From: a virus
Taxonomy: Duplodnaviria; Caudoviricetes
Length of the DNA: 43,462 nt
Direction: 5' to 3' (one strand)
Virus record (IMG/VR): IMGVR_UViG_3300037313_000819
Coordinates: 1 to 43,462 of that record
In this document: positions 7,137-24,827 of the stretch, piece after piece
Layout of the letters: each line of letters starts with the position of its first letter
How positions within the stretch are numbered: the stretch's first letter is position 1
The notes under the pieces: model-generated
What the model was told of the DNA's origin: nothing
Seen by the model: the letters and a program-made list of their open reading frames with translations, nothing else
Databases searched by the model: none
Position numbers and translations under genes: made by a program

Positions 7137-7159
7137 GATAACCCCGCCCCAGTGTGTGC

Positions 7160-7324
7160 TCAGATTGCGATCGTCGGAAACTGCCGCAGGACCCAGATGA
7201 CCAGCGCAACGATGGCGACTACCTGGATGATCTTCTTCACAGTCGCGTCGATCGGCGCGTACTGAACGATCGCCAGCGCACCGCCGAAAAGGAGGAGCGC
7301 GATGAAGAGTGCCGTGAGGTTCAT
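7160..7324 (-). CDS. Small two-TM membrane protein (resembles Thivi_2564 family)
   Basis: Manual: MNLTALFIALLLFGGALAIVQYAPIDATVKKIIQVVAIVALVIWVLRQFPTIAI; strong SD AAGGAG. Confidence 0.75.
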   Translation of the reverse strand: MNLTALFIALLLFGGALAIVQYAPIDATVKKIIQVVAIVALVIWVLRQFPTIAI

Positions 7325-7364
7325 GTGTTCTCTCCTTGGGTGGTGTTGATATTGCTGGATATTT

Positions 7365-11752: not shown

Positions 11753-11991
11753 GCTGCGGCCTGTTCGCCGAGTGCTTCGGGACGACGCGCCTTCGATTTC
11801 AGGTACGCCAGCGCTTCCGGAGAGAGCGATTTGCCTTCGAGGGGCTCCAAGTTCAGCAACGCTTTGCGGCGCCACGGCGGGATGCGCTCGTTAGCCTTCC
11901 AGCTGTGGACCGTCTGGACGGGATCGCCGGTTGCCGTGGCGATGGCAGTGGCCTCGCCTAGCACCTCGAAGATGTGATCGATGACCTGCAT
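11749..11991 (-). CDS. cro: Cro-like repressor
   Basis: HTH ..TVHSWK...IP; divergent from cI. Confidence 0.75.
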   Translation of the reverse strand: MQVIDHIFEVLGEATAIATATGDPVQTVHSWKANERIPPWRRKALLNLEPLEGKSLSPEALAYLKSKARRPEALGEQAAA

Positions 11992-12001
11992 GCCCGCAAC
12001 A

Positions 12002-12020
12002 CTATCCGAAAACCGGATAG
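12002..12020. promoter_or_regulatory. OR operator
   Basis: Perfect palindrome CTATCCG-AAAAC-CGGATAG, same core as the OL sites. Confidence 0.8.
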
Positions 12021-12088
12021 TTTGGCAAGCCCCGCCGAATCCGATTTTAGCGGAGGCGGGAATTTACCCAGCCTGTCACTATGTGGGA

Positions 12089-12667
12089 ATGGATGAAGCC
12101 GCGTTTATCATATTGATGCAGGATCGGATGGCCGCCCACAAGGTGAGCCAGACCGAGCTGGCGAAGATCGCCGGCCTCCCTTCTCAGTCAGCGGTGTCCA
12201 ACCTGTTCAAGGGCAAGCGGCGCTTACGGATGGACGAGCGCGCGAAGATAGCTGCCTACCTGGGAATCGAAGAAGAGCCCAACATTCATTGGGTTCCGCT
12301 GATTGGCCTTGCATCTGCCGGCGCTTGGGCCGAAGCTACGCAAGTGTCAGGGAAATCAATTCCTATTATGCGCCGGGTCGCCGGACCCCGGGCATTTGCC
12401 GTTACCATCAAAGGCGACAGCATGAACTTGCTACTCCCCGAAGGTGGTTACGCAATCGTTGACCCTGACCAGACCAGTCTTTACGCGGGCAAGGTCTACG
12501 TGCTTGAGAACGCTGACTGCGACACCACGGTCAAGCGCTACAAGGGAGACCCTGCCAGGTTTGAGCCGGTCTCCAACAATCCCGACCACCAGCCTCTCGA
12601 TTTATCCGAAACCCAGTTCCGGGTGATCGGTCGCGTTGTCAGCTATGGAAGCGACGACGGTCTCTAA
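12089..12667 (+). CDS. cI: CI repressor (HTH plus S24 autopeptidase)
   Basis: SQTELA...SQSAVSN HTH, ASAG cleavage site, GDSM Ser and TVKR Lys; likely start ATG 12089. Confidence 0.93.
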   Translation: MDEAAFIILMQDRMAAHKVSQTELAKIAGLPSQSAVSNLFKGKRRLRMDERAKIAAYLGIEEEPNIHWVPLIGLASAGAWAEATQVSGKSIPIMRRVAGPRAFAVTIKGDSMNLLLPEGGYAIVDPDQTSLYAGKVYVLENADCDTTVKRYKGDPARFEPVSNNPDHQPLDLSETQFRVIGRVVSYGSDDGL

Positions 12668-12675
12668 ATGAAAAA

Positions 12676-12719
12676 TATCCGAAAACCGGATTGACAGACT
12701 AATCCGAATATCGGATAAC
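12676..12719 (+). promoter_or_regulatory. pL promoter with OL1/OL2 operators
   Basis: TATCCGAAAACCGGATT (12676) and AATCCGAATATCGGATA (12701) flanking TTGACA (12691). Confidence 0.8.
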
Positions 12720-12765
12720 CCCTCTCAGAAGCAAAGCCCTCTGGCTTGCCTCTGGGAGGTTCTGA

Positions 12766-13107
12766 ATGTCGGACAGCAAGACAGATTTGGGCGTTGAGCC
12801 TTCGGCTCCCGGGCTCTCGCCTTCGGTCGAGCCGGTTCCCGTCTCGCCGGCTGACGCCGCTTCGATCCCTAACGCTGGCGAGTTCATTCGCAAGGCGTCG
12901 AACCTTTACCATGCGTCACTCGCTATGGAGGACCCGGCGGATCGCGAAATCTTCGCAACCAAGATTGAGGTAACGCTTCGGGCTACCGCTGATTGGCTGA
13001 CCGCTATTGCGTCAGCGATGAGCGCGCGAAGCGGCGAGACCGAAGGGCTCGCTCCGAAGGACGCCAGCGCGGTGCCGCAGGCAGACGCCCCGGAGTTCCC
13101 GGCATGA
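12766..13107 (+). CDS. Hypothetical protein; both ends encoded by hairpin elements
   Basis: First pL gene, SD GGGAGG; bracketed by elements A-L and A-R. Confidence 0.7.
   Translation: MSDSKTDLGVEPSAPGLSPSVEPVPVSPADAASIPNAGEFIRKASNLYHASLAMEDPADREIFATKIEVTLRATADWLTAIASAMSARSGETEGLAPKDASAVPQADAPEFPA
12789..12875 (-). repeat. Multi-hairpin element copy A-L
   Basis: Minus strand GCGTT-A-GGGATC..CGGC(GTCA)GCCG..CGAG-A-CGG(GAA)CCG-G-CTCG..CC(GAA)GG..GAGCCC-GG-GAGCC(GAA)GGCTC-AACGCCC. Confidence 0.85.
13009..13090 (+). repeat. Multi-hairpin element copy A-R (inverted relative to A-L)
   Basis: GCGTC-A-GCGATG..GC(GAA)GC..CGAG-A-CC(GAA)GG-G-CTCG..TCC(GAA)GGA..CAGCGC-GG-TGCC(GCA)GGCA-GACGCCC. Confidence 0.85.
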
Positions 13108-13286
13108 CCCAGATATCCGAAGAGCTTGTAGAGCGCGCCTTTGCGTTGCTGAACGCGAAATACGTTCAACGCGCCGATGCTCGCCAGCAGTCGATGGGGC
13201 TCCAGTACACCGAGGCGGAAACGCACGATCTAGCGCGTTTGATGGCGCGCTTTGCTGATCAGGTCATTTCGGAGTTGGGCAAGTGA
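13104..13286 (+). CDS. Hypothetical protein
   Basis: MTQISEELVERA...; ATGA overlap. Confidence 0.65.
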   Translation: MTQISEELVERAFALLNAKYVQRADARQQSMGLQYTEAETHDLARLMARFADQVISELGK

Positions 13287-13453
13287 CCGGCGCTCCCGAA
13301 GAGCGGATTCCGCGGTTTGCTTGCGGGCATTATCGCACCGCCAGCAACAGCAAGCTGGTACGCAATAAGACTGGCATAACTTGCGCCACCTGCTTCCGGA
13401 AGCGTGACAAGCTCTATCGCCGCGCCAAGCGTGCTGCGGAGCGCGGGCAATGA
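13283..13453 (+). CDS. Small Zn-binding-type hypothetical protein (56 aa)
   Basis: Manual: MTGAPEERIPRFACGH...CATCFRKRDK...; GTGA/ATGA overlaps at both ends. Confidence 0.6.
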   Translation: MTGAPEERIPRFACGHYRTASNSKLVRNKTGITCATCFRKRDKLYRRAKRAAERGQ

Positions 13454-13641
13454 ACGCCTTCGCCCGCCCCCACCCTACCTCTGTACCCTCAGTAGAGGAA
13501 CTGGCGAAGATCATTGAGCGCCGGACGCCACGTGCGCGTGTGCATCTGCCTGACCCCTCTCCGGACTTCGGATGGCAGGCGGAGGGCGAAAGCCTGGACC
13601 CCTATTACACCAGCCCGTTTGGGCTGCGGAGGACCGTATGA
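13450..13641 (+). CDS. Hypothetical protein
   Basis: 63 aa, coupled to neighbours. Confidence 0.55.
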   Translation: MNAFARPHPTSVPSVEELAKIIERRTPRARVHLPDPSPDFGWQAEGESLDPYYTSPFGLRRTV

Positions 13642-14042
13642 ACAAGGATTCTGAGCGACCCTTCGGGCAACCTGCTGGCGGGGCTTCGCCCCCGAGCCCT
13701 TCGGTCTCGGCCCTGTCGGGCGCTCATCAGGCGCATACTCCGGGGCCTTGGATGCGTGACGGTATTTCCGTCACTGTCGAGAGACCGGCAGGCCGAAAGC
13801 GCACCGCTATCGCCACAGCTTACCCGGACACATCCATATCATCCAGCGCTAGTTACAGTAGGATGATCAGCAACGCCCGCCTGATAGCAGCGGCCCCTGA
13901 TCTTCTGGAGGCGCTGGAGGTCTTCGTCTCGCAATACGTCGAACTCGTAGAGAGTGGCGACGCTGGCAACTGGGATGCCGAGACAGAGCCGAAGGTAATC
14001 GCCGCTCGCACCGCCATCGCCAAAGCCCGAGGTCTCTCATGA
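13638..14042 (+). CDS. Hypothetical phage protein (HTPGPW...NARLIAAAPDLLEAL family) with N-terminal hairpin element
   Basis: Recurrent phage motif; start ATG 13638 with SD GGAGG. Confidence 0.8.
   Translation: MNKDSERPFGQPAGGASPPSPSVSALSGAHQAHTPGPWMRDGISVTVERPAGRKRTAIATAYPDTSISSSASYSRMISNARLIAAAPDLLEALEVFVSQYVELVESGDAGNWDAETEPKVIAARTAIAKARGLS
13653..13734 (-). repeat. Multi-hairpin element copy B-L (no partner seen)
   Basis: Minus strand GCG-CCTGATG..GCCC(GACA)GGGC-CGAG-A-CC(GAA)GG-G-CTCG-GGGGC(GAA)GCCCC..CAGCAGG-TTG-CCC(GAA)GGG-TCGCTC. Confidence 0.85.
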
Positions 14043-14242
14043 GCGCACCCGGAAATCCGGCAGCCTTCCCCTGCTCTCCGGGTGACGTGCCATTCTGGAA
14101 TGAGGGCATGACCCTGCGAGATTACTTCGCTGGGCAGGCGCTGGCAATGTCCATGCCTGACAGCCCGCAACACTTGGCTGATTGGGCATACCGAGTTGCC
14201 GACGCCATGCTCGCCGAGCGCGCAAAGGTAGGTCTCTCATGA
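14039..14242 (+). CDS. Hypothetical phage protein (PAFP...GMTLRDYFA...AY.VADAML family)
   Basis: Recurrent phage motif. Confidence 0.85.
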   Translation: MSAPGNPAAFPCSPGDVPFWNEGMTLRDYFAGQALAMSMPDSPQHLADWAYRVADAMLAERAKVGLS

Positions 14243-14397
14243 GCGCGGAAAATCCGAGCCGGGAAGAGCGGGCATGGATACTGCTGTGCCAGCGCCTCGA
14301 GCGCAATCCGGACACTTCCGAAGAATACGAGACGTGCACTCTGCGCTCGGCCTGGAAAGCCATGATCGCGTTCGAAGCGCAGGAGCGTCTCTCATGA
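14239..14397 (+). CDS. Hypothetical protein
   Basis: MSAENPSREERAW...; ATGA overlap. Confidence 0.6.
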   Translation: MSAENPSREERAWILLCQRLERNPDTSEEYETCTLRSAWKAMIAFEAQERLS

Positions 14398-14431
14398 TCT
14401 CCCACCATTCCGATACTAAAGGAGGAGGCCT

Positions 14432-14641
14432 GTGACCAACGCTGAACTCGCGAAAGAGCTTTCGGCGCGCGCGGTCATCGCCGCCGTGATTTTCGGGCTG
14501 ATTTATCTGCTCGGCGCATTTAACGCGGCTTCTTTCGACATAACGAAATGGGAAATCGGCCTTCGAGCTGGCGTGTCGTTCATCGGCGGGATCGTCGCGC
14601 TGCTGATCAGTGCATATCCGTTCGAACGGTTCACGTCATGA
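14432..14641 (+). CDS. Small two-TM membrane protein
   Basis: Strong SD AGGAGG; two hydrophobic segments. Confidence 0.7.
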   Translation: MTNAELAKELSARAVIAAVIFGLIYLLGAFNAASFDITKWEIGLRAGVSFIGGIVALLISAYPFERFTS

Positions 14642-14738
14642 TCTCCCCTCCCTCACAGGCTCAGGACCATAGCTGGAAGCTTGTTGCTGCTGGGTTGGTC
14701 GTTGGGGTGCTGATTACCTGGATCAGGAGCTTAATCTG

Positions 14739-14987
14739 ATGCCCACATTCGCACGCCGCATCGACGCGCTCGGTGGAACCGAGTCCGACCAGTCCGAGGA
14801 TTGGAACGACGGCTACAGCGCCGCTCTGCGTGAAGCAACGGATATCGCAGAAGAAGCCGATGATGTGATTTCCGAACTCGTCGGGAGCATCGAAGACTTC
14901 CTGAGCGGCAACTTCAGCCATCTCCCGCGCTTCGCGGAGGAGGCGGAAACGCTTTGCCGTCGCATCAACGAGAGGACTGCACGATGA
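14739..14987 (+). CDS. Hypothetical protein
   Basis: 82 aa, SD AGGAG, acidic. Confidence 0.65.
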   Translation: MPTFARRIDALGGTESDQSEDWNDGYSAALREATDIAEEADDVISELVGSIEDFLSGNFSHLPRFAEEAETLCRRINERTAR

Positions 14988-15358
14988 ACGCGAAGCATTG
15001 GTCCATTGCGACTGCGATTGAACAAATCGACAAGTGCGATTTCGAGTGTGAAGCTGGCCCCTTGTCGCTCAACCAAGGTTATATCTGGCTGAAAGCAGCG
15101 GCGAAAGTTGGTCCGCAATTCTGGCCCGGCCAAGGCGTGTGGTACAAAATAACCGGCGAAATCTCCGGCTTCCAAATGGAGCGCTGGGCGCATCTCTACA
15201 TCGTCGGATGCGCGATGTCGTCGGATACCGAGCAACGTCTATGGACGTACTCGCTCAGCAGCGATCCGCCGGCTCCGTGGCACTATGGGACTGTCGCGTT
15301 TACCGGCGTTACTGAAACCGCGCTCAGTTTGGTCGACCCCGCGAAGGAGGACGCCTGA
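14984..15358 (+). CDS. Hypothetical protein
   Basis: MNAKHW...CDFECEAGPL; ATGA overlap. Confidence 0.65.
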   Translation: MNAKHWSIATAIEQIDKCDFECEAGPLSLNQGYIWLKAAAKVGPQFWPGQGVWYKITGEISGFQMERWAHLYIVGCAMSSDTEQRLWTYSLSSDPPAPWHYGTVAFTGVTETALSLVDPAKEDA

Positions 15359-15359
15359 C

Positions 15360-15587
15360 ATGCGCACCCCCGCACACACCCTCCCCTTCCTAGGTCCCGA
15401 ACCTGAATACCAGCATGCAAATGGGTTCATGAGGGAAGAGCCGACGTTCGATACGATCCGGCGGTACTGGTTCGACCAGGACTTCGCCGACGAAATCGAC
15501 GCCGAGACCGCTGCCATGCGCGCGAAAGCCCATGCCGCGATCGATGCCTGCATTCAACGCAATCGGGAGAAAAACCGTGGCAACTAA
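15360..15587 (+). CDS. Hypothetical protein
   Basis: MRTPAH..., SD AGGAGG. Confidence 0.6.
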   Translation: MRTPAHTLPFLGPEPEYQHANGFMREEPTFDTIRRYWFDQDFADEIDAETAAMRAKAHAAIDACIQRNREKNRGN

Positions 15588-16326
15588 GGCCATCACCACC
15601 ACTGATACGTCCAGCGAAGTCGCTGATTATAGCGGCGGCTTGCTCGCTGTGATCGAGCGCGCGGCCCGCGATCCGAATGTCGACATTGAAAAGCTTGAGC
15701 GCCTCTTTTCCCTGAAAGAGCGGATGGATGCGCGGGAGGCTGAGACGGCGTTCAATGCAGCGATGAGTGCTGCCCAGGCCGAGATGCGGCCGATCGCTGC
15801 GGATGCCATGAACCCACAGACGCGCAGCAAGTATGCCAGCTTTGCTGCGCTCGATAAAGCCATTCGCCCGATCTACACGAAGCACGGCTTTTCACTGAGC
15901 TTTGATGAAGCTGACTGCCCAAAGCCCGATTACGTTCGGGTGGTCTGCTACGTTTCGTGCGCTGGCCACACCCGCATCTATCACCGCGATATGCCGGCGG
16001 ATGGCAAGGGCGCCAAGGGCAATGACGTGATGACCAAGACGCATGCGGCCGGCGCCGCCGGTTCCTACGGCGCACGCTATCTGCTCAGGGGCATTTTCAA
16101 CCTGGCCGTCGGTGAGGATGACCGCGACGGGAATGAAGACGATGATGTGATGATCGACGCCAAGCAGTGCGCCGAGCTTCGCAAGCTGATCGAGCAGGCT
16201 GGCGTCACTGAGGAATCGTTCTGCGATTACGTCAAGTGCGGGACGCTGCCCGAACTGGCGGCAAAGCACTTCGACCGCGCCAAGGGCGTGCTGACCCAGC
16301 GGATTAACGCGGGGGCGGGCAAATGA
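15577..16326 (+). CDS. erf: ERF-family single-strand annealing protein
   Basis: DIEKLERL, AFNAAM..AQ, KYA, GS..SYG.RY.L..IFN.A..EDDRDG; GTG start. Confidence 0.88.
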   Translation: MATKAITTTDTSSEVADYSGGLLAVIERAARDPNVDIEKLERLFSLKERMDAREAETAFNAAMSAAQAEMRPIAADAMNPQTRSKYASFAALDKAIRPIYTKHGFSLSFDEADCPKPDYVRVVCYVSCAGHTRIYHRDMPADGKGAKGNDVMTKTHAAGAAGSYGARYLLRGIFNLAVGEDDRDGNEDDDVMIDAKQCAELRKLIEQAGVTEESFCDYVKCGTLPELAAKHFDRAKGVLTQRINAGAGK

Positions 16327-16982
16327 TGGAAATCGTCAATTGCGAGCAGGGCACGCCGGAGTGGTTCGCAGCTCGCGCAGGCATCCCAACCGCAAGCATG
16401 TTCGCCACCGTCATGGCTTCAGGCCGTGGCGGCGGGGACAGCAAGACCCGCGCGAAATACCTCTACCAGCTTGCGGGCGAGATCATCACGGGCGAGCCCG
16501 TGGAGAGCTATTCCAACGCTCATATGGAGCGTGGCAAAGAGATGGAGGGTGAGGCCCGAGATACCTACGCCTTCATCCACGGCGTTACCCCCCAGCAGAT
16601 CGGCTTTATCCGCAGCGGCGCGAAGGGGTGCAGCCCGGATAGCCTGATTGGCGCGGATGGCATGTGCGAGATCAAGACCAAGCTCCCGCATCTGCAAATC
16701 GAGGTTCTGTTGCGCGGCGGCTGTCCGCCCGAGCACAAGGCGCAATGCCAGGGTGCGCTTTGGGTAGCGGAGCGCGAATGGATCGACTTCGTATCCTACT
16801 GGCCGAAGATGCCCCTGTTCGTTCACCGGGTGCACCGCGACGAGGACTATATCAAGGCGCTGTCGGAAGGCGTTGACGCCTTCAACGAAGAGCTTTCGGC
16901 GCTGGTGGAGCGCGTGCGCGCCATGGGCGGCGAGCCAGCGAATGATGATGGCTGGAAGACCAACGTCCTGAGGGCTGGATGA
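16323..16982 (+). CDS. YqaJ/lambda-exonuclease-family recombination nuclease
   Basis: QGTPEWF..R.G..TAS, SPD, EIK, QCQG.LWV. Confidence 0.92.
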   Translation: MMEIVNCEQGTPEWFAARAGIPTASMFATVMASGRGGGDSKTRAKYLYQLAGEIITGEPVESYSNAHMERGKEMEGEARDTYAFIHGVTPQQIGFIRSGAKGCSPDSLIGADGMCEIKTKLPHLQIEVLLRGGCPPEHKAQCQGALWVAEREWIDFVSYWPKMPLFVHRVHRDEDYIKALSEGVDAFNEELSALVERVRAMGGEPANDDGWKTNVLRAG

Positions 16983-17197
16983 TGCGTGCGCGCCGCCCCT
17001 CCCCCAGCGAAATCCGCATGGAAGAGCTTTGCGCCCTTCGTCGTGACCTGACGGAGGACGAGCAGGCCGAGATCATGGCACTGAAGCGCCGCATCACCAA
17101 CGCGCGCTGCGTCCGCCGTCGATATGCGCGAGACCCGCAATTCCGCCAGAGCGAGATTGAGCGCAACCTGCGGCGCTACCGGGAGCTCCGGGCATGA
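16979..17197 (+). CDS. Hypothetical basic protein
   Basis: 72 aa, coupled to neighbours. Confidence 0.55.
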   Translation: MMRARRPSPSEIRMEELCALRRDLTEDEQAEIMALKRRITNARCVRRRYARDPQFRQSEIERNLRRYRELRA

Positions 17198-17577
17198 CGT
17201 TCCTAGGCCCCGCAGCCTTGCGCAACCGCAAGAAGAACGCACCGCGCCCTGCGTGGAAAGTGGCCGATGCTTTCAGGCAATGGCTCAGAGGAAGGCCATG
17301 TGCGTGCCAGGGCAAGAACCCCGACTGCGGCGGCCCGATGCGATCTGCGCACGTCGATTACGCTGGTTCGAAGGGCATGGGAACGAAAGTCGCGGATTCC
17401 GACTGCATCCCACTCTCGGACAACTGCCACCGCCTCCAGCATACCATCGGCTGGCGCTCTTTCGAGGTGAAGTACCTCAAGGGCGAAGGCTCCGGGCAGG
17501 CAATGTCGAACGAATACTGGAGCGCGTGGCCCGGCCGCAAGGCGTGGGAACAGCAACTGGAGGCCCGCAATGGCTGA
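17194..17577 (+). CDS. Putative HNH-like nuclease (DUF968/HNHc-like)
   Basis: W.R..PC.C...AHV....GMG.K..D...IPL...CH..QH. Confidence 0.75.
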   Translation: MTFLGPAALRNRKKNAPRPAWKVADAFRQWLRGRPCACQGKNPDCGGPMRSAHVDYAGSKGMGTKVADSDCIPLSDNCHRLQHTIGWRSFEVKYLKGEGSGQAMSNEYWSAWPGRKAWEQQLEARNG

Positions 17578-17776
17578 TGTTCAACCCTGCGATTTCTGCG
17601 GCGCGCCAGTCGTTTGGACGGCCGAGCAGATCAACCTCGACTTGGCCCTCAAGCTGCGCGGATCGCCTCACTGCACCGGGCTCGGCGTGATGTGCGACGC
17701 CTGCGACGACAAGCAAATCACCCTCATGATCGCTGAAATGGAGCGCGATGCGCTGGAGGAGGAAGACGATGCGTGA
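17570..17776 (+). CDS. Small Zn-finger-type protein
   Basis: CDFC...CDAC. Confidence 0.55.
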   Translation: MADVQPCDFCGAPVVWTAEQINLDLALKLRGSPHCTGLGVMCDACDDKQITLMIAEMERDALEEEDDA

Positions 17777-18176
17777 CGCCGGCACCTTCGCCAAAGAAGG
17801 CTTTTCGCTGATCCCCAAGGACTTCGACGCGCGATCGATCATCGGGCGCCTGAAGGAAGGGGATCGCCTGTTCGTGGAAGTCTGGAAGCCGCGCAACATG
17901 GCGCAGCATCGGGCCTATTTCGCGATGCTCAACAATGTTGTCCAGGCGTCAGGGCAATGGCCTTCGAGGGAAGCGCTCGAGTTCGATATCGCGCTCGCCC
18001 TTCGCCGCGGGACCTTCGTCAAGGCGATGAACGGCAGCACCCATTTTCGGCCCGACAGTCGCGCCGTGGCGTCGATGCCCAAGGAGGACTTCGAGCGCCT
18101 CCACAACGACACCGTGGCGCTCCTGACCGATTGGCTGGGCTGCGATCCCGAGATGCTTCGCGAGGAAGCAGCGTGA
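17769..18176 (+). CDS. DUF1367/NinB-like protein
   Basis: KPRN...HR.YFAML, P.S....SM...DF..L. Confidence 0.7.
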   Translation: MRDAGTFAKEGFSLIPKDFDARSIIGRLKEGDRLFVEVWKPRNMAQHRAYFAMLNNVVQASGQWPSREALEFDIALALRRGTFVKAMNGSTHFRPDSRAVASMPKEDFERLHNDTVALLTDWLGCDPEMLREEAA

Positions 18177-18204
18177 CCCCTTCAAATCATTCAGGACCAT
18201 CCTC

Positions 18205-18600
18205 ATGACAAACGATATAGCCGAGACAGCGGCTGAACTTGAAGGCTACATCGCCCGTCGCCGCGATTGGTCGAGCAAAACATCTATGATGTCGATCCCT
18301 CAGCCAGTGATCGAGCGGACGATCGTCGTATTGAGAGGCCTCGCCACACAATCACCAGCATCGCTGGAGCGGGAGGCGCTGAAGCACCCCGGCACCGCTC
18401 GCTGCACTGATCCGCGCGGCCACGAGTTTATGACTTGGGACCTTCCTGCCGATGTCGGCGACGGTGCGACAGTAGCCATCGAGGTCGAGCGCATGCTGCT
18501 CAAATGCTTCGAGCACGGGCGGGCATACCAGATGGAAATCGTCAGCAATGCGATGGTCGACATCAGCAAGCAGCGCGATAGGGACAACGACCATGTCTGA
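18205..18600 (+). CDS. Hypothetical protein
   Basis: 131 aa ORF in operon orientation. Confidence 0.6.
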   Translation: MTNDIAETAAELEGYIARRRDWSSKTSMMSIPQPVIERTIVVLRGLATQSPASLEREALKHPGTARCTDPRGHEFMTWDLPADVGDGATVAIEVERMLLKCFEHGRAYQMEIVSNAMVDISKQRDRDNDHV

Positions 18601-19396
18601 CGCAGACACCACCCCGCCATCGGATCGCGCGGGGGAGGAGCTACCCGAGCCGTCCCAGTCGTGGGCGAGTGTCATGGCGAATATCCGCCAAGGGCGAAGC
18701 TCAACGCCGCGCTGCGAACCGCTGAGCGAACGCGATATCCAGTGGGCATATGACCGCATCTGCGAAGTGGTCGAGGCGTACCGGACGCTGGTCGCCTATT
18801 CACCGCGCACCGCCTCCCCGCCATCGGATCACATTGCCAGCCCCTCGGGGGAGGAAGTGCATCGGTTGCTTGAGCAAGTTCAGCGGCGAGGCACGTGGAT
18901 GCGGGAGGTTCACAAGCTCGATATTCGCCAGTTCGTGGACAGAGCTGGGCAGTGGGGCACATTCGATTTCGTAAACGATGCGCTGCACTTGATATCGCAT
19001 CTAACCGCCGCCCCCTCTCCAGCCCAGCAAAGCGGGGAACTGCGGGAGGCGTTCCTTCAGACGCAAATGATGCTTGAACAGATTGTGCATCTGAAATCGA
19101 CCGATTTTGCCGAAGTCCGTGCCCGCATCATGGCGAACCGCCAAGCCCTCGCATCCACCCCATCGTCTTCTCCATCAGAGATGGGACGGGAAGACATTGC
19201 GCGGATCATCGACCCCGGCCTTTGGGCGCAGCACGATGCGAAGCTCGCCGAACTGATCGATCTGGACGGCGATCCGCTGGGCGGGGTGATCGCGCACGAC
19301 AAGCGCGATGAAGCACGCCGACTTGTAGCCGGCACTCTGCGCAAGGCCGACGCCATCCTCGCCCTATCTCAACCCACAGAACTGGGAGAACGGTAA
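18593..19396 (+). CDS. Mosaic hypothetical protein
   Basis: Modules separated by P/S-rich linkers; RE.IARIIDP...KADAILAL module. Confidence 0.65.
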   Translation: MSDADTTPPSDRAGEELPEPSQSWASVMANIRQGRSSTPRCEPLSERDIQWAYDRICEVVEAYRTLVAYSPRTASPPSDHIASPSGEEVHRLLEQVQRRGTWMREVHKLDIRQFVDRAGQWGTFDFVNDALHLISHLTAAPSPAQQSGELREAFLQTQMMLEQIVHLKSTDFAEVRARIMANRQALASTPSSSPSEMGREDIARIIDPGLWAQHDAKLAELIDLDGDPLGGVIAHDKRDEARRLVAGTLRKADAILALSQPTELGER

Positions 19397-19638
19397 TGGG
19401 CGAGTATGCCGAATACGCGCTCGCTGCGGCGATGCGTCGAGGTTTCCCGGCAACTTGCGGCGGGGCTCCGCGAGCGCGGTCCAAAGCCCATCCATGCCGC
19501 CTGTGCAACCGGGGCATTCGCGGCGGCCACATGGGCATGGTCAGCCATCTCAAATCCAAGCACGGCATGAAAGATCGCGAGGCCCGCACATTCGTTTGCA
19601 CACCCCTCGCCCAAGCGCAGGGAGGATCGGCAGTATGA
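19396..19638 (+). CDS. C2H2 zinc-finger protein
   Basis: MGEYAE...CRLC...HLKSKH. Confidence 0.7.
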   Translation: MGEYAEYALAAAMRRGFPATCGGAPRARSKAHPCRLCNRGIRGGHMGMVSHLKSKHGMKDREARTFVCTPLAQAQGGSAV

Positions 19639-19645
19639 GCGAGGG

Positions 19646-19840
19646 CTACGGCTTTTCGCGACGTGCCAGCTCGCGCTCGACGGCTTGCCGGATGAACTCC
19701 GCCCGCTTGCCAGGTCCTGCGAACGCATCGATCCGCGCCAGCGTCTCCGCTGACAGCCGCACCGCTGTGAACTTTCCGATTGCTGGTCGCCCCATGCGCG
19801 GCGGACTAGCCGTTATCTCTTTCTGTGCCAAGTCGCTCAT
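19646..19840 (-). CDS. Ribbon-helix-helix DNA-binding protein
   Basis: MGRP....T.VRL....LARID......RAEFIRQAVE.EL; opposite to operon. Confidence 0.85.
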   Translation of the reverse strand: MSDLAQKEITASPPRMGRPAIGKFTAVRLSAETLARIDAFAGPGKRAEFIRQAVERELARREKP

Positions 19841-19896
19841 GTTTCCGTTATCGCCTATTGACAGTAACCGTTATCTTCTATTAGATAGCCGTTATC
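19810..19896. promoter_or_regulatory. Divergent promoter with four CCGTTATC operator repeats
   Basis: CCGTTATC at 19810, 19845, 19868, 19889; TTGACA at 19858; AT-rich. Confidence 0.75.
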
Positions 19897-19914
19897 GTTT
19901 ACGGAGGCAAGCAA

Positions 19915-20202
19915 ATGTATAAGCCCTACACCCCGAACCAGTTTCGTGTCCTAGCCGCTGCGTTCCGCGGTGACGCCAACGCGGCCAGCTTCGATAGCCG
20001 CCGAGCGAAGACGCGCGCGCTCAACGATATGGTTTCGGCCAAGCTCGTCTATGGCGGGCTTGAAGGCGGGGCGCTGACCCCGGATGGTCTCCGCGCCTAT
20101 ACCGACATGTGCATGCGCTATGATGCCGACAGCGGTTGCTTGGCGTATGCCGAACGGGCTCAAGAGGCGCGCGCTGCCCTCCGTGCGATGGAGGCGCAGT
20201 GA
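19915..20202 (+). CDS. Hypothetical protein (possible winged helix)
   Basis: SD GGAGG; L...GL......LT..G pattern. Confidence 0.7.
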   Translation: MYKPYTPNQFRVLAAAFRGDANAASFDSRRAKTRALNDMVSAKLVYGGLEGGALTPDGLRAYTDMCMRYDADSGCLAYAERAQEARAALRAMEAQ

Positions 20203-20411
20203 TGGACGCCGAAGCAATCGCGGACATCGTAGAGCAGTGCCTGAACGGCGATAGCGGGTACGTCATGAAGTCGGTCGGCTTCGCGATCACTTCGCTGAGC
20301 GATCTCGGCGAGGTCTACGTTCGCACTCCCAGTGGCGACCATTTCAGGCTGACCGTCGAGCCCGTCGCGGCAGACGATATCGAAGGATGGGGGATCGAGT
20401 TCGATGACTGA
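20202..20411 (+). CDS. Hypothetical protein
   Basis: MDAEAIADIV...; coupled. Confidence 0.6.
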   Translation: MDAEAIADIVEQCLNGDSGYVMKSVGFAITSLSDLGEVYVRTPSGDHFRLTVEPVAADDIEGWGIEFDD

Positions 20412-20838
20412 TCCCGCGACGCCGAACACCCCTCCCAAAGACGCAGCTTCACCCGTAGAAGCGGAGATCGACTACGAGGTCTGGCAATCCGATGCGTTCG
20501 GCGATGGCGTCGCGATGGTTGCGGGATCGACGAGCCTCGAGGAGGCCCAGCACTATTGCGCGGTCTATGGGCAGGACTGGCCGGTGTGGATTGTCGAGGT
20601 CACTCGGCGCCGCATCAGCGATCCGAACAGACCGGACATTGCTCCCGCCCCTACCGTTACGGTATCTGCGGAGGACTTCGTACTGGTGCCGCGCGCCGAG
20701 CTTGAGGATTTCTCGTATGTGATCAGCAATCTGATCGGCGAGCTTTCCGACCCAGGCAGCGGCGCGATGGCCGCGCAGTATCGCATCCGAGCCATGCTCT
20801 CCGCCACTCCCGCCGCTGTTAAGGGGGGTGAAGGATGA
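20404..20838 (+). CDS. Mosaic hypothetical protein
   Basis: FVLVPR...YRAMLSA.P-type module. Confidence 0.65.
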   Translation: MTDPATPNTPPKDAASPVEAEIDYEVWQSDAFGDGVAMVAGSTSLEEAQHYCAVYGQDWPVWIVEVTRRRISDPNRPDIAPAPTVTVSAEDFVLVPRAELEDFSYVISNLIGELSDPGSGAMAAQYRIRAMLSATPAAVKGGEG

Positions 20839-21344
20839 GTGATAACAACGAGTTAGAGCGCGTGCCGTTGGCACCGGGCTCTCATGAACCGAGCCCTGAC
20901 GGTCTCGGCCCTTCGGGTTTCGATCCCTCGCGCAGCCACTACCGGTCGCAGGCATACGCCATGTGCACAATCGAAACGGGTCGGGACAGCGACGGCGCTC
21001 CAACCAGCGACATGTGGACGTTCGCAAACGAGGATGACTGTGTCGAGGGCTATGGATGGCTGGAAGTTCACGTCCATGAAATCGTACAGACCGAGCGCTC
21101 GGGCGCGTTGGCCGTCTATTACCGGCAGTGGTTTGCACCTGATGGTGAGCCAGCTTGGGGCAAGAGGCCGCAACGTAAGGTCGGCGCGCTCGGTAGTCTG
21201 AAATCATTGATCCGTCGCCGCAAGATGACGCCATGCGATAGCGATGGAAGCCCGGAGGGCGAAAAGCCGCAGGCTTTGAGTGCGCAGCACGACAGCGCGG
21301 GCCCAACGGGCATCGCCCAACCCCCATCGGAGGAAGTCCAATGA
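20835..21344 (+). CDS. Hypothetical protein; both ends encoded by hairpin elements
   Basis: ATGA overlaps; bracketed by elements C-L and C-R. Confidence 0.7.
   Translation: MSDNNELERVPLAPGSHEPSPDGLGPSGFDPSRSHYRSQAYAMCTIETGRDSDGAPTSDMWTFANEDDCVEGYGWLEVHVHEIVQTERSGALAVYYRQWFAPDGEPAWGKRPQRKVGALGSLKSLIRRRKMTPCDSDGSPEGEKPQALSAQHDSAGPTGIAQPPSEEVQ
20856..20933 (-). repeat. Multi-hairpin element copy C-L
   Basis: Minus strand GCGCG-A-GGGATC..CCC(GAA)GGG-CCGAG-A-CC(GTCA)GG-G-CTCGG..GAGCCC-GG-TGCC(AAC)GGCA-CGCGCTC. Confidence 0.85.
21235..21318 (+). repeat. Multi-hairpin element copy C-R (inverted relative to C-L)
   Basis: GCGAT-A-GCGATG..GCCC(GGA)GGGC..AGCC(GCA)GGCT..GTGC(GCA)GCAC..CAGCGC-GG-GCCC(AAC)GGGC-ATCGCCC. 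Confidence 0.85.
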
Positions 21345-21532
21345 CCAAGTATTTCGCAGATATCAACGTGCAGCTTCGTGTCTATTTTGAAGATGATGGC
21401 GAGAACGACATCACCGACCAAGCGATGGAATTGGCCGAGCATTCATTCACTCTGAATGGCGATGACACCGATTATCTCGGCTTGGAGATGGTTGGCAAGC
21501 CTGAGCAAAGAAAGACAGAGGCACCCCGATGA
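21341..21532 (+). CDS. Hypothetical acidic protein
   Basis: 63 aa, SD GGAGG. Confidence 0.65.
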   Translation: MTKYFADINVQLRVYFEDDGENDITDQAMELAEHSFTLNGDDTDYLGLEMVGKPEQRKTEAPR

Positions 21533-21744
21533 CCTCTATCCAAAGAGCCCGTCGCATCCGCGCCATGAACGCAAGACTTGCGAGCATCGAAGCCGAACGC
21601 CGCCAGATCCTCGCCGACCTTCTCCCCCTGGAAACAGAGGAAAGCTGGTCCCTTGGATACCGCTGCGTAGTCCGTGGAGACAAGCTCATTGCTTCCATGG
21701 ATCACCGCGACGAAGCCGAACGTCGTGCGAGGGAAGCGGCATAA
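21529..21744 (+). CDS. Hypothetical protein
   Basis: 71 aa, coupled. Confidence 0.6.
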   Translation: MTSIQRARRIRAMNARLASIEAERRQILADLLPLETEESWSLGYRCVVRGDKLIASMDHRDEAERRAREAA

Positions 21745-21935
21745 TGGAGAATGCTCGCTTCTGGACATCTTTCGGTTTCGCGCTGCTAGCATATGCTATC
21801 GCACGCGCTGCTGACGTACCTATCTGGTATTGGGAACGAGGTGGTGACGCGATCGGTATCGCAGCTGCCGCCGCCTTTGCAACCTATGCGTTTCTCGGGT
21901 TCGTCGCCAAAATCCTTTCGAGGGAAGCGGCCTGA
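21744..21935 (+). CDS. Small two-TM membrane protein
   Basis: MENARFWTSFGFALLAY...; two hydrophobic segments. Confidence 0.6.
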   Translation: MENARFWTSFGFALLAYAIARAADVPIWYWERGGDAIGIAAAAAFATYAFLGFVAKILSREAA

Positions 21936-21936
21936 C

Positions 21937-22260
21937 ATGATTGCGCCCCGCCCCTTCAGTCCGGAGACGCTTTCTGAGCGCTGGGGTTGCAGCGCGGAGA
22001 AAGTCCGGCGCATGTACCACGATGGCGAGCTTTCCGGGTTCCGGCTCGGCAAGCTGATTCGCATCACCGCCAACGAGGTAGAGCGCTACGAGTGTCAGAA
22101 TACCGAATTGTCGAACACCGCGGAAGATTCTCCCTCGCCTATAACGATGACGAGCGAGGACGCGTTCGAATTGCGCTTGGCACGGATGACCGCGGGATCG
22201 CGGAGGCTCGCGCTCGCGACATCTGGCGCGCCCGCACTACGCCCCAAAGCGAGCGGGTAG
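21937..22260 (+). CDS. xis: Excisionase (HTH_17/MerR-like)
   Basis: FSPETLSERWGCS...VRRM...GEL..FRLGKLIRI; overlaps integrase start. Confidence 0.8.
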   Translation: MIAPRPFSPETLSERWGCSAEKVRRMYHDGELSGFRLGKLIRITANEVERYECQNTELSNTAEDSPSPITMTSEDAFELRLARMTAGSRRLALATSGAPALRPKASG

Positions 22261-23060
22261 CGGATCTATGGCCCGTCTATGTCGCCGATCGCCAACGGGA
22301 GGTCTCGCGCAAGGACAGGTTCGACAGCCTGTGGAAGGCCCTCGCCCCGCATTTCGGGCACCGCTTGGGCACCGCCATATCCCGAGACGATTGCCGGGAA
22401 TACCACAAGGCGCGCAAGCGGGCGGGCAAGAGCAACAGCACCGTCAAGACCGAGCTGGAGTTTCTCCGCGCGTGCCTGCGCTTCCACTACAAGGCCAACG
22501 CCCCGAGCATTTGGATGCCGCCGGACAGCAAGCCTCGAGAGCGCTATCTGAACGAAGCCGAGCGCGACAAGCTGCTGGCGTCGATCGACGCACCGCACGT
22601 CAAGCTGTTCGTCATCCTGGCACTGACCACCGGAGCGCGGATGAGCGCGTTGCTGGACCTGACATGGGATCGCGTCGACCTGAACGTTGGTACTGTGGAT
22701 CTGAACCCCGCCGGCCGGGAGATCACCAACAAGCGCCGCACCATCGTCAAGCTGAACGAAAGGGCGATCAACGCGCTGCGCGAGGCGCAGGAAGCGCGCC
22801 AGACAGATCATGTGATCGAATATGGCCGGGAGCCGGTCAAGAGCATCCGCAAGGCCATACGGGCAGCGGCGGCGCGCTCTGGGGTCCCATGTTCCCCGCA
22901 CGTCTTCCGGCATACGGCTGGCGTATGGATGGCGAATGCCAATGTCTCGATGGATCGGATCGCGCAGCGGCTAGGAACGACCGTCCGGATAGCCGAGAAG
23001 CACTATGCTAGGTTTAGCCCATCGTACCAGCAAGAGGCCGCCGACGCGCTCAACTGGTAG
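22092..23060 (+). CDS. int: Tyrosine integrase
   Basis: TGARMS..L.L.W (R), K, PHVFRHT (HxxR), C-terminal HYA (Y); likely GTG start at 22092. Confidence 0.93.
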   Translation: MSEYRIVEHRGRFSLAYNDDERGRVRIALGTDDRGIAEARARDIWRARTTPQSERVADLWPVYVADRQREVSRKDRFDSLWKALAPHFGHRLGTAISRDDCREYHKARKRAGKSNSTVKTELEFLRACLRFHYKANAPSIWMPPDSKPRERYLNEAERDKLLASIDAPHVKLFVILALTTGARMSALLDLTWDRVDLNVGTVDLNPAGREITNKRRTIVKLNERAINALREAQEARQTDHVIEYGREPVKSIRKAIRAAAARSGVPCSPHVFRHTAGVWMANANVSMDRIAQRLGTTVRIAEKHYARFSPSYQQEAADALNW

Positions 23061-23075
23061 CTCGGCCGGTTCCGC

Positions 23076-23296
23076 GGTACCACCCGAACCTCTCGGGCGG
23101 GCTAGGGAAACCCGCAGAAATGCGTGGTGGGCGCTGAGAGACTTGAACTCCCGACCCTCTCGGTGTAAACGGTGGGGACGCCAGCCAATCTGGGATTTTC
23201 TCGCCAACGAACGACGGGATTTAGCCACTTTAGGCCGGTTTCGTTCCGATTGCGTTCGCGTCAGTGGTACATCTGGTACCAGCCGAACCTCTCGGG
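23076..23296. repeat. 22-bp direct repeats flanking the attP core (putative arm sites)
   Basis: GGTACCACCCGAACCTCTCGGG (23076) vs GGTACCAGCCGAACCTCTCGGG (23275). Confidence 0.7.
23125..23171 (-). other. attP: attP core: 3' half of tRNA-Val(TAC)
   Basis: Minus strand CGTTTACACCGAGAGGGTCGGGAGTTCAAGTCTCTCAGCGCCCACCA: anticodon loop, T-arm, CCA; 5' half absent; next to integrase. Confidence 0.9.
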
Positions 23297-23353
23297 TTTT
23301 GCGCCCCGCCTCCTTGCAGGGAAACGGGGCGCACCAGAGGCATGGAGGTGCCA

Positions 23354-23743
23354 GTGGCTGACCGCTATCTAACCCAACGGGTCTATTTTATCCAAGCCGG
23401 ATCGCGAGGCCTGATTAAGATCGGGATCGCCGAAGATCCCGCGCGCCGGCTGCGCCAGATGCAGACTGGCAGCAGCGAGCCCCTTATTCTTCTGGGCCAT
23501 ATGCCCGGCGGTGCTGATCGGGAAGCAGAGCTCCAGCGCTTGCTGGCCGCACATCGCGCCCGTGGCGAATGGTTCCGGCCTGTCCCTGAGGTCTTAGCAT
23601 GGGCTCCAGGCATCGAGACCGAGCAGCTTTGCGAAGCCCTAGGCGGTGTCAGCCGCGATGAGGCTATGCGATATATGCTTCATACGATGATGGGGCTCAA
23701 TCCGTTCCCGAGGAACATACCGGCACATAGGTCGGCACAGTGA
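23354..23743 (+). CDS. GIY-YIG (T5orf172/MUG113-like) protein
   Basis: VYFIQ....IKIG...P..RL..MQTG...E..L......R.RGEWF. Confidence 0.85.
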   Translation: MADRYLTQRVYFIQAGSRGLIKIGIAEDPARRLRQMQTGSSEPLILLGHMPGGADREAELQRLLAAHRARGEWFRPVPEVLAWAPGIETEQLCEALGGVSRDEAMRYMLHTMMGLNPFPRNIPAHRSAQ

Positions 23744-24246
23744 GCGGAGCTTATGAACTCCGCCCGATAACGGTGAAATCCGGTATCGCATGGATAAGCG
23801 ACGTGCACCGTCACCTTCCTATCGTGCAAGGTGGGCTCTTCGCCGTGGCGGTCTATCAGGGCCCGCAGCTCGTTGGCGTCGGGCTGACCGGCAATCCTGC
23901 CCGCGTGTGGCAAGGGACTGGCCGTGTCATTATCTCCCGCGTCGCCGTGCTGGCAGGCCTCGATCACGTTGGCAGCCACGCCGCACCTGTCTGCTCGATG
24001 ATTTATGGCGCCCTCACCCGCGCTTCTCGAGCACTCGGCTACCGAGAGGTTTGGACTTATACGCTGCCAGAGGAATCGGGCGCCTCTCTGCGAGCCGCTG
24101 GCTTTATCGACATGGGGCTTACGCGGGCTGAGGAATGGGATCGCCCCTCGCGCCGTCGCAATGCCGCGGTACGGCCAGATGCAAAACGCCGCTGGGTGCG
24201 TCACTTTGGCGACCCGGTAACCGAGAAACTGAGGATCGCAGCATGA
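23740..24246 (+). CDS. XF1762/Mom-like GNAT-fold protein
   Basis: PI......I...HRH, LVGV...G.P, CS..YGA..RA..ALGY....TYTL..E.GASLRAAGF. Confidence 0.8.
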   Translation: MSGAYELRPITVKSGIAWISDVHRHLPIVQGGLFAVAVYQGPQLVGVGLTGNPARVWQGTGRVIISRVAVLAGLDHVGSHAAPVCSMIYGALTRASRALGYREVWTYTLPEESGASLRAAGFIDMGLTRAEEWDRPSRRRNAAVRPDAKRRWVRHFGDPVTEKLRIAA

Positions 24247-24458
24247 CCGAACCACTCGACATCTCCAGCGAGGCAAACCGCACCTATCATTATGCGGACG
24301 GCGTCACCTTCACGATCGATGCGCCGTACAAGCTCCATGTGACCGACACCGGTTCGCATCGGGTCGTTGCGCAGGACGGGCGGACCTATCGGCCAGAGCG
24401 CGGATGGCTGGCGATATCCTGGCAACCTCGCGAAGGTGCGCCGGAGTTTGTCGCATGA
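24243..24458 (+). CDS. Hypothetical protein
   Basis: DISSE..RTY.Y......I..P..L.V...GSHRV recurrent phage motif. Confidence 0.7.
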   Translation: MTEPLDISSEANRTYHYADGVTFTIDAPYKLHVTDTGSHRVVAQDGRTYRPERGWLAISWQPREGAPEFVA

Positions 24459-24488
24459 TATCCCGCCTCAACGAGCATGGAGGGTTTG

Positions 24489-24827
24489 ATGGATAACAAT
24501 GGCTTAGGACCCGAAGTTGGGCGACGGCTAGCGCCGCAACCTGCTCTCGCCGTTCCGGCCGAGCCCGCAAGCGGGCTCGTCGCTTCGCGCTTCGATCAGG
24601 CGCAGGCCAGTTCGTTTAGGCCGTTGAGCGGGTTCATTGCCGAGGTAGAAGATAAACTCGGCCGGCGTCCATGGCCAATAAGGGCTTGGAGCTTCTTCAG
24701 CCGCCGTATTTTGCGCTTCCGATTGCGGAGGTATGCTGCCCGCAATCCTAAGGCGAAAGTTAGCCAGGAAGCGTTCGATATTGTCTCGCGGGAATATGGC
24801 TTGGGCCCTGATATAAAGGAATCTTGA
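24489..24827 (+). CDS. Hypothetical protein with N-terminal hairpin element
   Basis: SD GGAGGG; contains element D-L in frame. Confidence 0.6.
   Translation: MDNNGLGPEVGRRLAPQPALAVPAEPASGLVASRFDQAQASSFRPLSGFIAEVEDKLGRRPWPIRAWSFFSRRILRFRLRRYAARNPKAKVSQEAFDIVSREYGLGPDIKES
24519..24603 (-). repeat. Multi-hairpin element copy D-L (no partner seen)
   Basis: Minus strand GCG-CCTGATC..GC(GAA)GC..CGAGCCCGC/GCGGGCTCG-GCCG(GAA)CGGC-GAGAGCAGG-TTG-CGGC(GCTA)GCCG-TCGCCC. Confidence 0.85.

Follow-up and report, generated by a model that had tools for sequence, protein, structure and literature searches.

The DNA analysed here, called the window throughout, is a whole virus record of 43.5 kb (IMG/VR record IMGVR_UViG_3300037313_000819, positions 1 to 43,462), and this study concerns a folded element that occurs in it six times. 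Matches to PHROGs families were found for a portal protein, a terminase, RusA, a CI-like repressor (11981-12667), an Erf-like annealing protein, an exonuclease, NinB, an excisionase and an integrase, and judged by this gene set the window is a temperate tailed phage. All six copies of the element lie in the plus-strand early region, downstream of the repressor and within open reading frames (ORFs). A first-pass annotation, made from the sequence letters alone, had described the copies as one fold kept on one strand and had proposed a structure-selected single-stranded DNA (ssDNA) element acting as a recombination, priming or processing site. We recovered all six copies with the stems described for them, and the fold is indeed shared. 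The strand is not, as copies 1, 3, 4 and 6 fold on the minus strand and copies 2 and 5 on the plus strand, so that a plus-strand alignment of all six fails.

Copies 1 and 2 and copies 4 and 5 form two back-to-back (outward) pairs, each flanking one gene. Copy 1 (12789-12875, minus strand, antisense to transcription, 65.7 bits under the covariance model described below) is the left half of the first pair and has its 3' end 22 nt from the start codon at 12766. Its partner, copy 2 (13009-13090, plus strand, sense, 82.5 bits), is followed 15 nt past the element by the next start codon, in an ATGA overlap. A 113-codon ORF (12766-13107, plus strand) runs through copy 1, 129 bp of cargo and copy 2. 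This ORF is the first gene past the repressor-side promoter, has no PHROGs or Pfam match, and is replaced by an element-free gene in the close relative G011. The second pair consists of copy 4 (20856-20933, minus strand, antisense, 77.9 bits) on the left and copy 5 (21235-21318, plus strand, sense, 59.7 bits) on the right, with the next start codon 24 nt past copy 5. Here a 169-codon ORF (20835-21344, plus strand) runs through copy 4, 297 bp of cargo and copy 5. The two remaining copies are unpaired and antisense. Copy 3 (13653-13734, minus strand, 53.8 bits) lies 14 nt past the ATG at 13638, N-terminal to a phrog_1273 domain, and a search for relatives of the gene after it found none. Copy 6 (24519-24603, minus strand, 54.4 bits) is held by an ORF that starts at 24477 or 24489 and ends at 24827.

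A covarying multi-junction fold

The element is 80-100 nt long. An outer stem (GCG...CGC) encloses an inner stem with an A·G mismatch, which leads into a three-hairpin junction whose middle hairpin carries a second A·G mismatch, and a fourth hairpin precedes the closure of the outer stem. Overall, a four-way junction is thus connected to a three-way one. The conserved CGC(C/T)C end of the first-pass annotation is present, although it is composed of the closing CGC of the outer stem plus an unpaired CC. By our own reading GNA triloops account for 16 of the roughly 24 loops in the six copies, in keeping with the earlier description, and the others are mostly GTCA, GACA, GCTA, CTTG or AAC.

A covariance model was built from the six copies and 48 relatives (54 copies in total). 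A 17-nt pattern taken from the middle hairpin returned 82 viral loci, from which the 48 relatives were drawn, and strong model matches were found in 65 of 81 viral pattern loci compared with 6 of 100 bacterial loci scored (of 120 returned), suggesting that the pattern in bacterial genomes is mostly a chance occurrence. The model scores the six window copies at E-values from 8e-16 to 1e-9, with the next window match at E 0.5; these scores are not independent because the six copies sit in the training set. A simple structural descriptor gave eight matches in the window against a mean of 1.9 (maximum 5) in 30 Markov controls, and three against 0.23 when at least two C-GNA-G loops were required. 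The family was not recovered by an exact-repeat finder. Plain minimum free energy folding recovered the structure for some copies only, and the structures that it returned were often unlike the covariation fold.

Covariation is strong and two-sided. In a MAFFT alignment of the 54 copies, a set biased in the middle hairpin by the search pattern, 91.6% of cells are paired, with 225 two-sided against 13 one-sided changes; none of 500 shuffles reached this level, and slid controls were 26-46% paired. A further 56 distinct copies, in an alignment fitted to the model and with a few copies overlapping the training loci, are 96.1% paired, with 332 two-sided against 10 one-sided changes. Only 13 of about 1280 pairs in these further copies are G·T (about 1%). 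The hundreds of compensatory changes in these alignments point to a rare natural multi-junction DNA structure. Left and right subtypes, which the window copies seemed to hint at, were rejected, as both inner-stem variants occur on either side across 44 pairs. At two related loci (L058:575-667 and L081:272-346) the interior of the element has been swapped with compensatory changes while both flanks are about 96% identical, a pattern that suggests conversion between copies.

Folding as DNA

Loop composition points to DNA. Across 178 copies GNA triloops occur 345 times on the folding strand and nine times on the other strand, and cUNCGg occurs once, which agrees with the earlier view that these are not RNA UUCG tetraloops. 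Loops of the forms cGTCAg and gCTTGc recur, and both match stable DNA loop classes. A stricter loop parse, which covered 81 of 291 distinct copies and 324 positions, returned 161 GNA, 26 GNYA, 12 CNNG and 7 GNRA loops. Folding energies are mildly informative: the folding strand has the lower energy in 53 of 60 copies under DNA parameters and in 40 of 60 under RNA parameters, and folding z-scores are modest (-1.5 with DNA and -1.1 with RNA parameters).

Using a codon model we oriented 281 of the 291 distinct copies relative to transcription, of which 151 are antisense and 130 sense. ORFs often run through the elements, giving recurring peptides. Antisense copies are nevertheless translated through in three frames (45, 25 and 22 copies), and the use of three frames and both strands argues against conservation at the amino-acid level. 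No existing Rfam family was matched: there were no hits at the gathering score in the whole window or in 20 relative loci, and only chance matches at E-values up to 10 in window positions 12500-14000. The proposal of a structure-selected ssDNA element is therefore well supported by the loops, the rarity of G·T pairs, the use of both orientations and three frames, and the strand-biased placement set out below.

Placement in filamentous phages

On mobile elements that pass through a single-stranded stage, placement of the element is strictly strand-biased. The identities of the virion strand and, for plasmids, of the transferred strand rest on established knowledge. In a Pf1-type record a single copy lies between PA0719 and gene 5, and it is on the gene-sense strand. 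A 20-nt motif from this record matched 54 IMG/VR loci, nearly all on inovirus-sized contigs and each covering at most 4 kb on either side, and every one of the 54 has exactly one model match. The element is on the gene-sense strand in all 40 loci with similarity to Zot, g5p or coat proteins (29 Pf-like and 11 others) and in all 12 further loci with inovirus-type Rep similarity only; two loci have no inovirus gene. It lies before gene 5 or upstream of rep. No model match was found in Pf1 NC_001331, Pf3, M13, RSM1, RSS1 or Cf1c. At 7148-7349 of Pf1 NC_001331, where other Pf phages hold the element, there is an AT-rich intergenic sequence that is a candidate alternative minus-strand origin.

Inoviruses package the gene-sense strand, and their virion DNA is circular. 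A single, strand-fixed and replaceable module per ssDNA genome would resemble a minus-strand origin. A single strand that is packaged has to be primed somewhere and would profit little from a roadblock, so the inovirus placement favours priming, and we consider filamentous phages the most telling context for the element. The available text of two papers on Pf phages (PMC4863604, PMC7549136) names no Pf minus-strand origin.

Placement on conjugative plasmids and related loci

Model-scored copies were found on six plasmids: F (two copies, at 58089-58174 and 63477-63562), R46 (three), R388 (two), NZ_CP019200 (IncN, four), NZ_CP029997 (MOBF, five in 33 kb) and pTer331 (one). None of the 17 shares a strand with the relaxase or tra genes, and 16 are in the leading region; the copies are thus predicted to sit on the transferred strand. 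In pTer331 blastn gives a second place, outside the scored set, and one pIPO2 copy was not oriented. No model match was found in ColIb-P9 between 10 and 55 kb. The leading-region repeats of F, R46 and R388, which are 560-660 bp long, end distally in the element; those of R388 are known as the IncW long direct repeats. Searches with three queries by blastn matched 277, 1575 and 4265 plasmids, mostly conjugative; the latter two counts are from single-copy searches against PLSDB, with 1386 and 3265 conjugative plasmids, respectively. In R46 (L280:23700-23790) and R388 (L282:19700-20075) more GC-rich hairpins with GNA loops lie 5' of the element on the same strand, which suggests a larger folded domain in the leading-region repeats.

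Two Hyphomonadaceae genomes have 17 and 8 mostly single copies. Seven genomic copies adjoin VirD2-like relaxase genes (with Pfam scores near the cut-off), all on the opposite strand, other genomic copies are near trbI, and one in another genome is near ardA. At eight loci resembling integrative and conjugative elements (ICEs), the element is directly preceded on its 5' side by a G-tract motif that could form a G-quadruplex (L206, L207, L211, L212, L215, L216, L225 and L230); traF or relaxase genes are close to most of these loci.

The conversion of incoming F DNA survives rifampicin and looks repeatedly primed by host factors, according to the accessible part of a recent report (10.64898/2026.01.09.698686), and RNA-polymerase-independent priming would therefore be needed.

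Paired copies and gene exchange in tailed phages

Tailed-phage records reached via the element have 1-15 copies each, and the element is present in 7 of 21 relatives picked by their terminase. GenBank phages contain almost no blastn relatives of the window copies. Across 41 long loci, which together contain 151 copies, neighbours no more than 1 kb apart are arranged outward in 46 cases, inward in 20 and directly in two. Outward pairs hold 92 of the 151 copies and enclose 129-907 bp, usually one small gene that often starts 10-25 nt before the left copy and ends shortly past the right copy. Cargo is not limited to tiny ORFs, because one pair (L079) encloses a 330-aa radical-SAM-like gene. The enzyme-like cargo genes of L009 and L055 (about 180-195 aa) are homologous and lie between different element variants. 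A ribosome-binding site and start codon lie at most 40 nt from the 3' end of the element in 85 copies of each orientation (out of 151 antisense and 130 sense), compared with 120 of 742 control positions scored with a slightly simpler test. Three unpaired copies (L318, L343 and L347) have CT-rich low-complexity sequence before them and a sigma-70-like promoter after them.

Comparison of related loci revealed exchange of the enclosed genes. In L049/L055 and in L017/L321 the flanks are common and the cargo differs, and in the latter the element plus tail is common as one block. The cargo of copies 4 and 5 occurs with both elements but other flanks in L203, and with the left element alone in L205. 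In L049/L055 and in L203/window homology begins or ends at the terminal CGCCC of the element. G011 is 97% identical to the window over the repressor region and has different genes at three sites; the genes at the copy 1/2 and copy 6 sites are element-free, and the breaks fall at a ribosome-binding site or start codon and at an ATGA overlap. Junction homology with G011 is short and lies just outside the elements, at 13100-13135 (beside copy 2), at 20784-20833 (stopping at the ribosome-binding site outside copy 4) and at 24453-24492 (40 bp, identical in G011, stopping at the start codon outside copy 6). Breakpoints vary among the element 3' end, the element 5' end and a gene junction, and they therefore fall inside the elements or within about 50 nt of them rather than at one base. 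No clean empty site or target duplication was found in the locus comparisons, including G011. The same phages also shuffle element-free genes at junction homologies of 35-50 bp.

The window encodes an Erf-like single-strand annealing protein and an exonuclease (15532-16982, plus strand; phrog_155 E 2e-39 and phrog_149 E 7e-37), which are candidate machinery for inserting short fragments. A DUF968 HNH-like gene (17194-17577, plus strand) was examined as a dedicated partner enzyme and rejected. By blastp this family is present in 15 of 17 element-bearing genomes, and it is the only family common to most of them. It is however also present in 17 of the 21 terminase-picked relatives, just seven of which carry the element; 10 of the 14 element-free relatives have it, and 7 of 15 element-bearing records lack it. 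No protein family is common to all 17 element-bearing genomes, and the cluster of the window integrase is in 6 of 17. No enzyme dedicated to the element was thus found, and no recombinase or HUH gene co-occurs with it.

A probable single-strand initiation signal

Taken together, placement and covariation suggest that the element is probably a structure-defined single-strand initiation (ssi) site or minus-strand origin, read by a host primase or primosome. Among the roles first proposed, priming fits best, and an attC- or HUH-type recombination site found no support, given the near absence of direct repeats in phages, the lack of a co-occurring recombinase or HUH gene, and the lack of a swap point at a fixed base. 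The 3' foot of the element is consistent with priming. In 270 tailed-phage copies C occurs at +1 in 92% and at +2 in 80%; in 20 inovirus copies C is invariant at both positions, and 11 of the 20 continue as CTG, the E. coli DnaG triplet. In each of the three groups most copies have an unpaired CC past the outer stem, and the 3' tail folds less than the 5' flank does. The unpaired CC and weakly folded tail would fit primer synthesis at the 3' foot.

A conserved host protein would bind the fold; we infer a host reader because no element-encoded protein is common to the carriers. A primer would be synthesised at the 3' foot or past it and then elongated in the direction of the element's 5' side. 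In tailed phages, exonuclease resection or strand displacement would expose single strands, and an outward pair would then prime towards itself across the enclosed gene. The products would be short copies ending in the start-codon and ATGA junction sequences where swaps break, and an Erf-type annealing protein could insert them into other phage genomes. Paired convergent priming that feeds gene swapping is the weakest step of this scheme and, in our assessment, possible but rather doubtful. That the whole holds together is unlikely. A single, so far undescribed, folded-DNA signal would have to be recognised by an enzyme conserved among proteobacterial hosts, act as minus-strand origin in Pf-type and related filamentous phages, and prime incoming F, IncN and IncW DNA independently of RNA polymerase; tailed phages would have co-opted the same signal as a convergent pair that copies out single accessory genes as recombineering cassettes for Erf-mediated shuffling.

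Several observations weigh against priming. Of the 40 inovirus loci 29 are close Pf relatives, and the 54 loci contain 38 distinct stretches. At the ICE-like loci no origin of transfer was located and no consistent MOBP nick motif lies beside the copies. The mapped priming site of F, ssiD/Frpo, ends as deposited (D90178.1) about 90 nt before the element, and two 15-mers from the element are absent from the 10 supplementary files searched, including the Frpo/ssi table (PMC11541004). Plasmid copies are 450-580 nt upstream of leading genes, and priming there would tend to shut off the single-strand promoter. CTG is not enriched in tailed-phage tails (81 against 100 in the 5' flanks) or in plasmid copies (2 of 7). 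Because phiX174, ColE1, M13, Pf3 and others have no match, carriers can evidently do without the element or replace it, and it does not resemble the classical PriA sites. Among the terminase-picked relatives 14 of 21 have no element, some of them being fragments. Finally, the elements are not required for swapping, because element-free genes swap at the same junctions in G011.

Alternative explanations

A protective fold would block a 3'-to-5' exonuclease or stall a polymerase arriving from the 3' side of the element. On plasmids it would shield the promoter and gene 5' of the element, and in resected phage DNA it would guard the enclosed gene at both ends. GNA mini-hairpins withstand nucleases, the served gene is on the 5' side of the element on plasmids and in paired phage copies alike, and the Frpo, CUP-region and R388 leading-region repeats each have the element at their distal end. 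Such a fold explains the plasmid and paired-phage geometry equally well as single-strand initiation does, but not the inoviruses, where a single copy on circular virion DNA has no 3' end to guard and would gain nothing from stalling a polymerase. F does have a structural roadblock by which early expression is prolonged, but the accessible part of the report that maps it places it at ssp2 upstream of yfgB, a site distinct from the element (10.64898/2026.01.09.698686). We consider a protective role decidedly unlikely.

The element might instead be an attC-like or HUH-like recombination or cleavage site that bounds a mobile single-gene cassette and is acted on in trans. The homology edges at the terminal CGCCC in L049/L055 and L203/window, the replaced interior between nearly identical flanks in L058/L081, and conserved A·G mismatches that resemble extrahelical determinants would suit this role. 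The breakpoints are variable, however, and neither target duplications nor clean empty sites were found; no recombinase is shared, with DUF968 failing its control, and the single, intergenic, strand-fixed inovirus copies are not cassette ends. A recombination site is highly improbable on this evidence.

Another possibility accepts the ssi function and holds that the tailed-phage copies are hitch-hiking sites that do no more than supply common homology for Erf-mediated shuffling or assist re-priming, with pairing a product of recombination rather than of convergent priming. It is compatible with the first half of our preferred explanation, and it draws on the element-free genes shuffled at short junction homologies in the same phages and on the common element-plus-tail block of L017/L321. 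Compensatory change, however, keeps the structure while the sequence diverges, which lowers homology, and direct neighbours are nearly absent (2 of 68). The odds of hitch-hiking being the full account of the phage copies appear very slight.

An RNA element, such as an antiterminator, a translation-coupling structure or an antisense RNA, would suit the window, where all copies are in a transcribed early operon near starts, as well as the greater stability of the folding strand under RNA parameters in 40 of 60 copies. It is nonetheless extremely improbable: the two orientations are equally common, triloops and GNYA and CNNG loops dominate with GNRA at 7 of 324, G·U pairs are at about 1%, Rfam has no match, and on plasmids the element folds on the template strand of the leading genes. 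Conservation as a peptide tag, for which the recurring peptides speak, or as a filamentous-phage packaging signal, given that inovirus packaging signals are virion-strand hairpins, has a similarly minute probability, as the use of three frames and two strands, changing stem lengths and mostly intergenic plasmid copies oppose the former, and the latter, compatible in placement with inoviruses only, leaves the F, IncN, IncW and tailed-phage copies unexplained. A reading as a Streptomyces telomere or transposon end was dropped because the inovirus and plasmid copies are internal and single.

Other features of the window

Three successive small genes share a terminal junction sequence that overlaps the next start codon in an ATGA (14031-14042, 14230-14242 and 14388-14399), and related junctions recur in L020, L049 and L055. 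Beside the CI gene, a palindromic operator-like sequence at 12690-12720 overlaps a promoter and is repeated near 12000 (12000-12020), in a region that is 97% identical in G011. Past the integrase, a 22-nt direct repeat (23076-23097 and 23275-23296, 95%) flanks a tRNA-like stretch near 23125-23170, and this is likely the attP region. Short repeats (19807-19832 and 19886-19911) flank a promoter-like site in the middle of the early region.

Relation to known systems and significance

The closest parallels are ssi sites, single-strand origins (sso) and minus-strand origins, which are likewise folded ssDNA on the strand that needs copying, occur on ssDNA phages and conjugative plasmids, and have no element-specific enzyme nearby. 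Known ssi types include the PriA-type n'-pas of phiX174 and ColE1, the DnaG-type origin of G4, and ssiA and ssiB of RSF1010. Like such sites, the element has a conserved secondary structure, and it occupies the strand that passes through a single-stranded stage, in all 40 inovirus loci with structural genes and for all 17 plasmid copies. It differs in its covarying four-way and three-way junction and in its outward pairs inside tailed-phage coding sequence. With filters off, the model found no match in phiX174 or ColE1, the carriers of the PriA-type n'-pas. A list of ssi is given in PMC7690428.

Frpo/ssiD and the ssp promoters of F and ColIb-P9, as described in the accessible portions of PMC9849209, PMC12672017 and PMC11541004, share with the element the same strand and the same 559-bp F repeat. 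The element is set apart from them by its position about 90 nt beyond deposited ssiD and by the lack of a match in ColIb-P9 (10-55 kb), and no conserved -35 or -10 boxes were found in the element alignment. The element is also the distal end of the 650-bp leading-region repeats known as CUP repeats in the IncN plasmids R46 and pKM101, and as long direct repeats in R388. CUP is defined by a promoter and an ArdK site, and the available text of PMC5027574 and PMC6289460 mentions neither a folded end module nor an occurrence in phages.

Integron attC sites and the DUF1874 motif (PMC5737381, available in part) are likewise folded ssDNA with conserved mismatches and single swappable genes. However, attC sites are simple hairpins in direct arrays that are served by an integron integrase, whereas neighbouring copies of the element are inverted in 66 of 68 cases, with two direct neighbours within 1 kb, and no such integrase accompanies them. 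Gene-boundary homologies of phages are also short conserved sequences edging exchanged accessory genes, with P22-like linkers, T4-type PeSL elements and mycobacteriophage MPME as examples. The element, in contrast to these, is kept as structure and not as sequence, is translated in frame, and is common to plasmids and filamentous phages. Repetitive extragenic palindromes (REPs and REPINs) are not a match either: 7 of 120 sampled genomes besides the centre genome have a match, with one to three scored copies each (36 candidates were scored per genome), and no REP-associated tyrosine transposase (RAYT) was found among 98 neighbouring ORFs. Paired copies are different variants and their flanks are not duplicated, at odds with miniature inverted-repeat transposable elements and transposon ends. 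By the tests run, the element is not Frpo, a phiX174 or ColE1 primosome site, attC, a REP or an Rfam family.

The element appears to be undescribed in the literature consulted, which includes the main texts of two Weinberg motif surveys and the available parts of PMC2864571 and PMC4290620; older work (Masai and Arai 1997, Delver and Belogurov 1997, Nomura 1991) may cover the plasmid segment. It is real and widespread, and likely works like an ssi site. How the incoming single strand is primed in the recipient is still an open question for conjugative plasmids, and no priming sites are named for F conversion in the accessible part of the recent report (10.64898/2026.01.09.698686). The element is a precise candidate priming site of about 90 nt, shared by Pf-type phages and thousands of sequenced plasmids, F, R46 and R388 among them. 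The paired copies inside tailed-phage genes suggest a concrete way in which small accessory genes may be exchanged one at a time.

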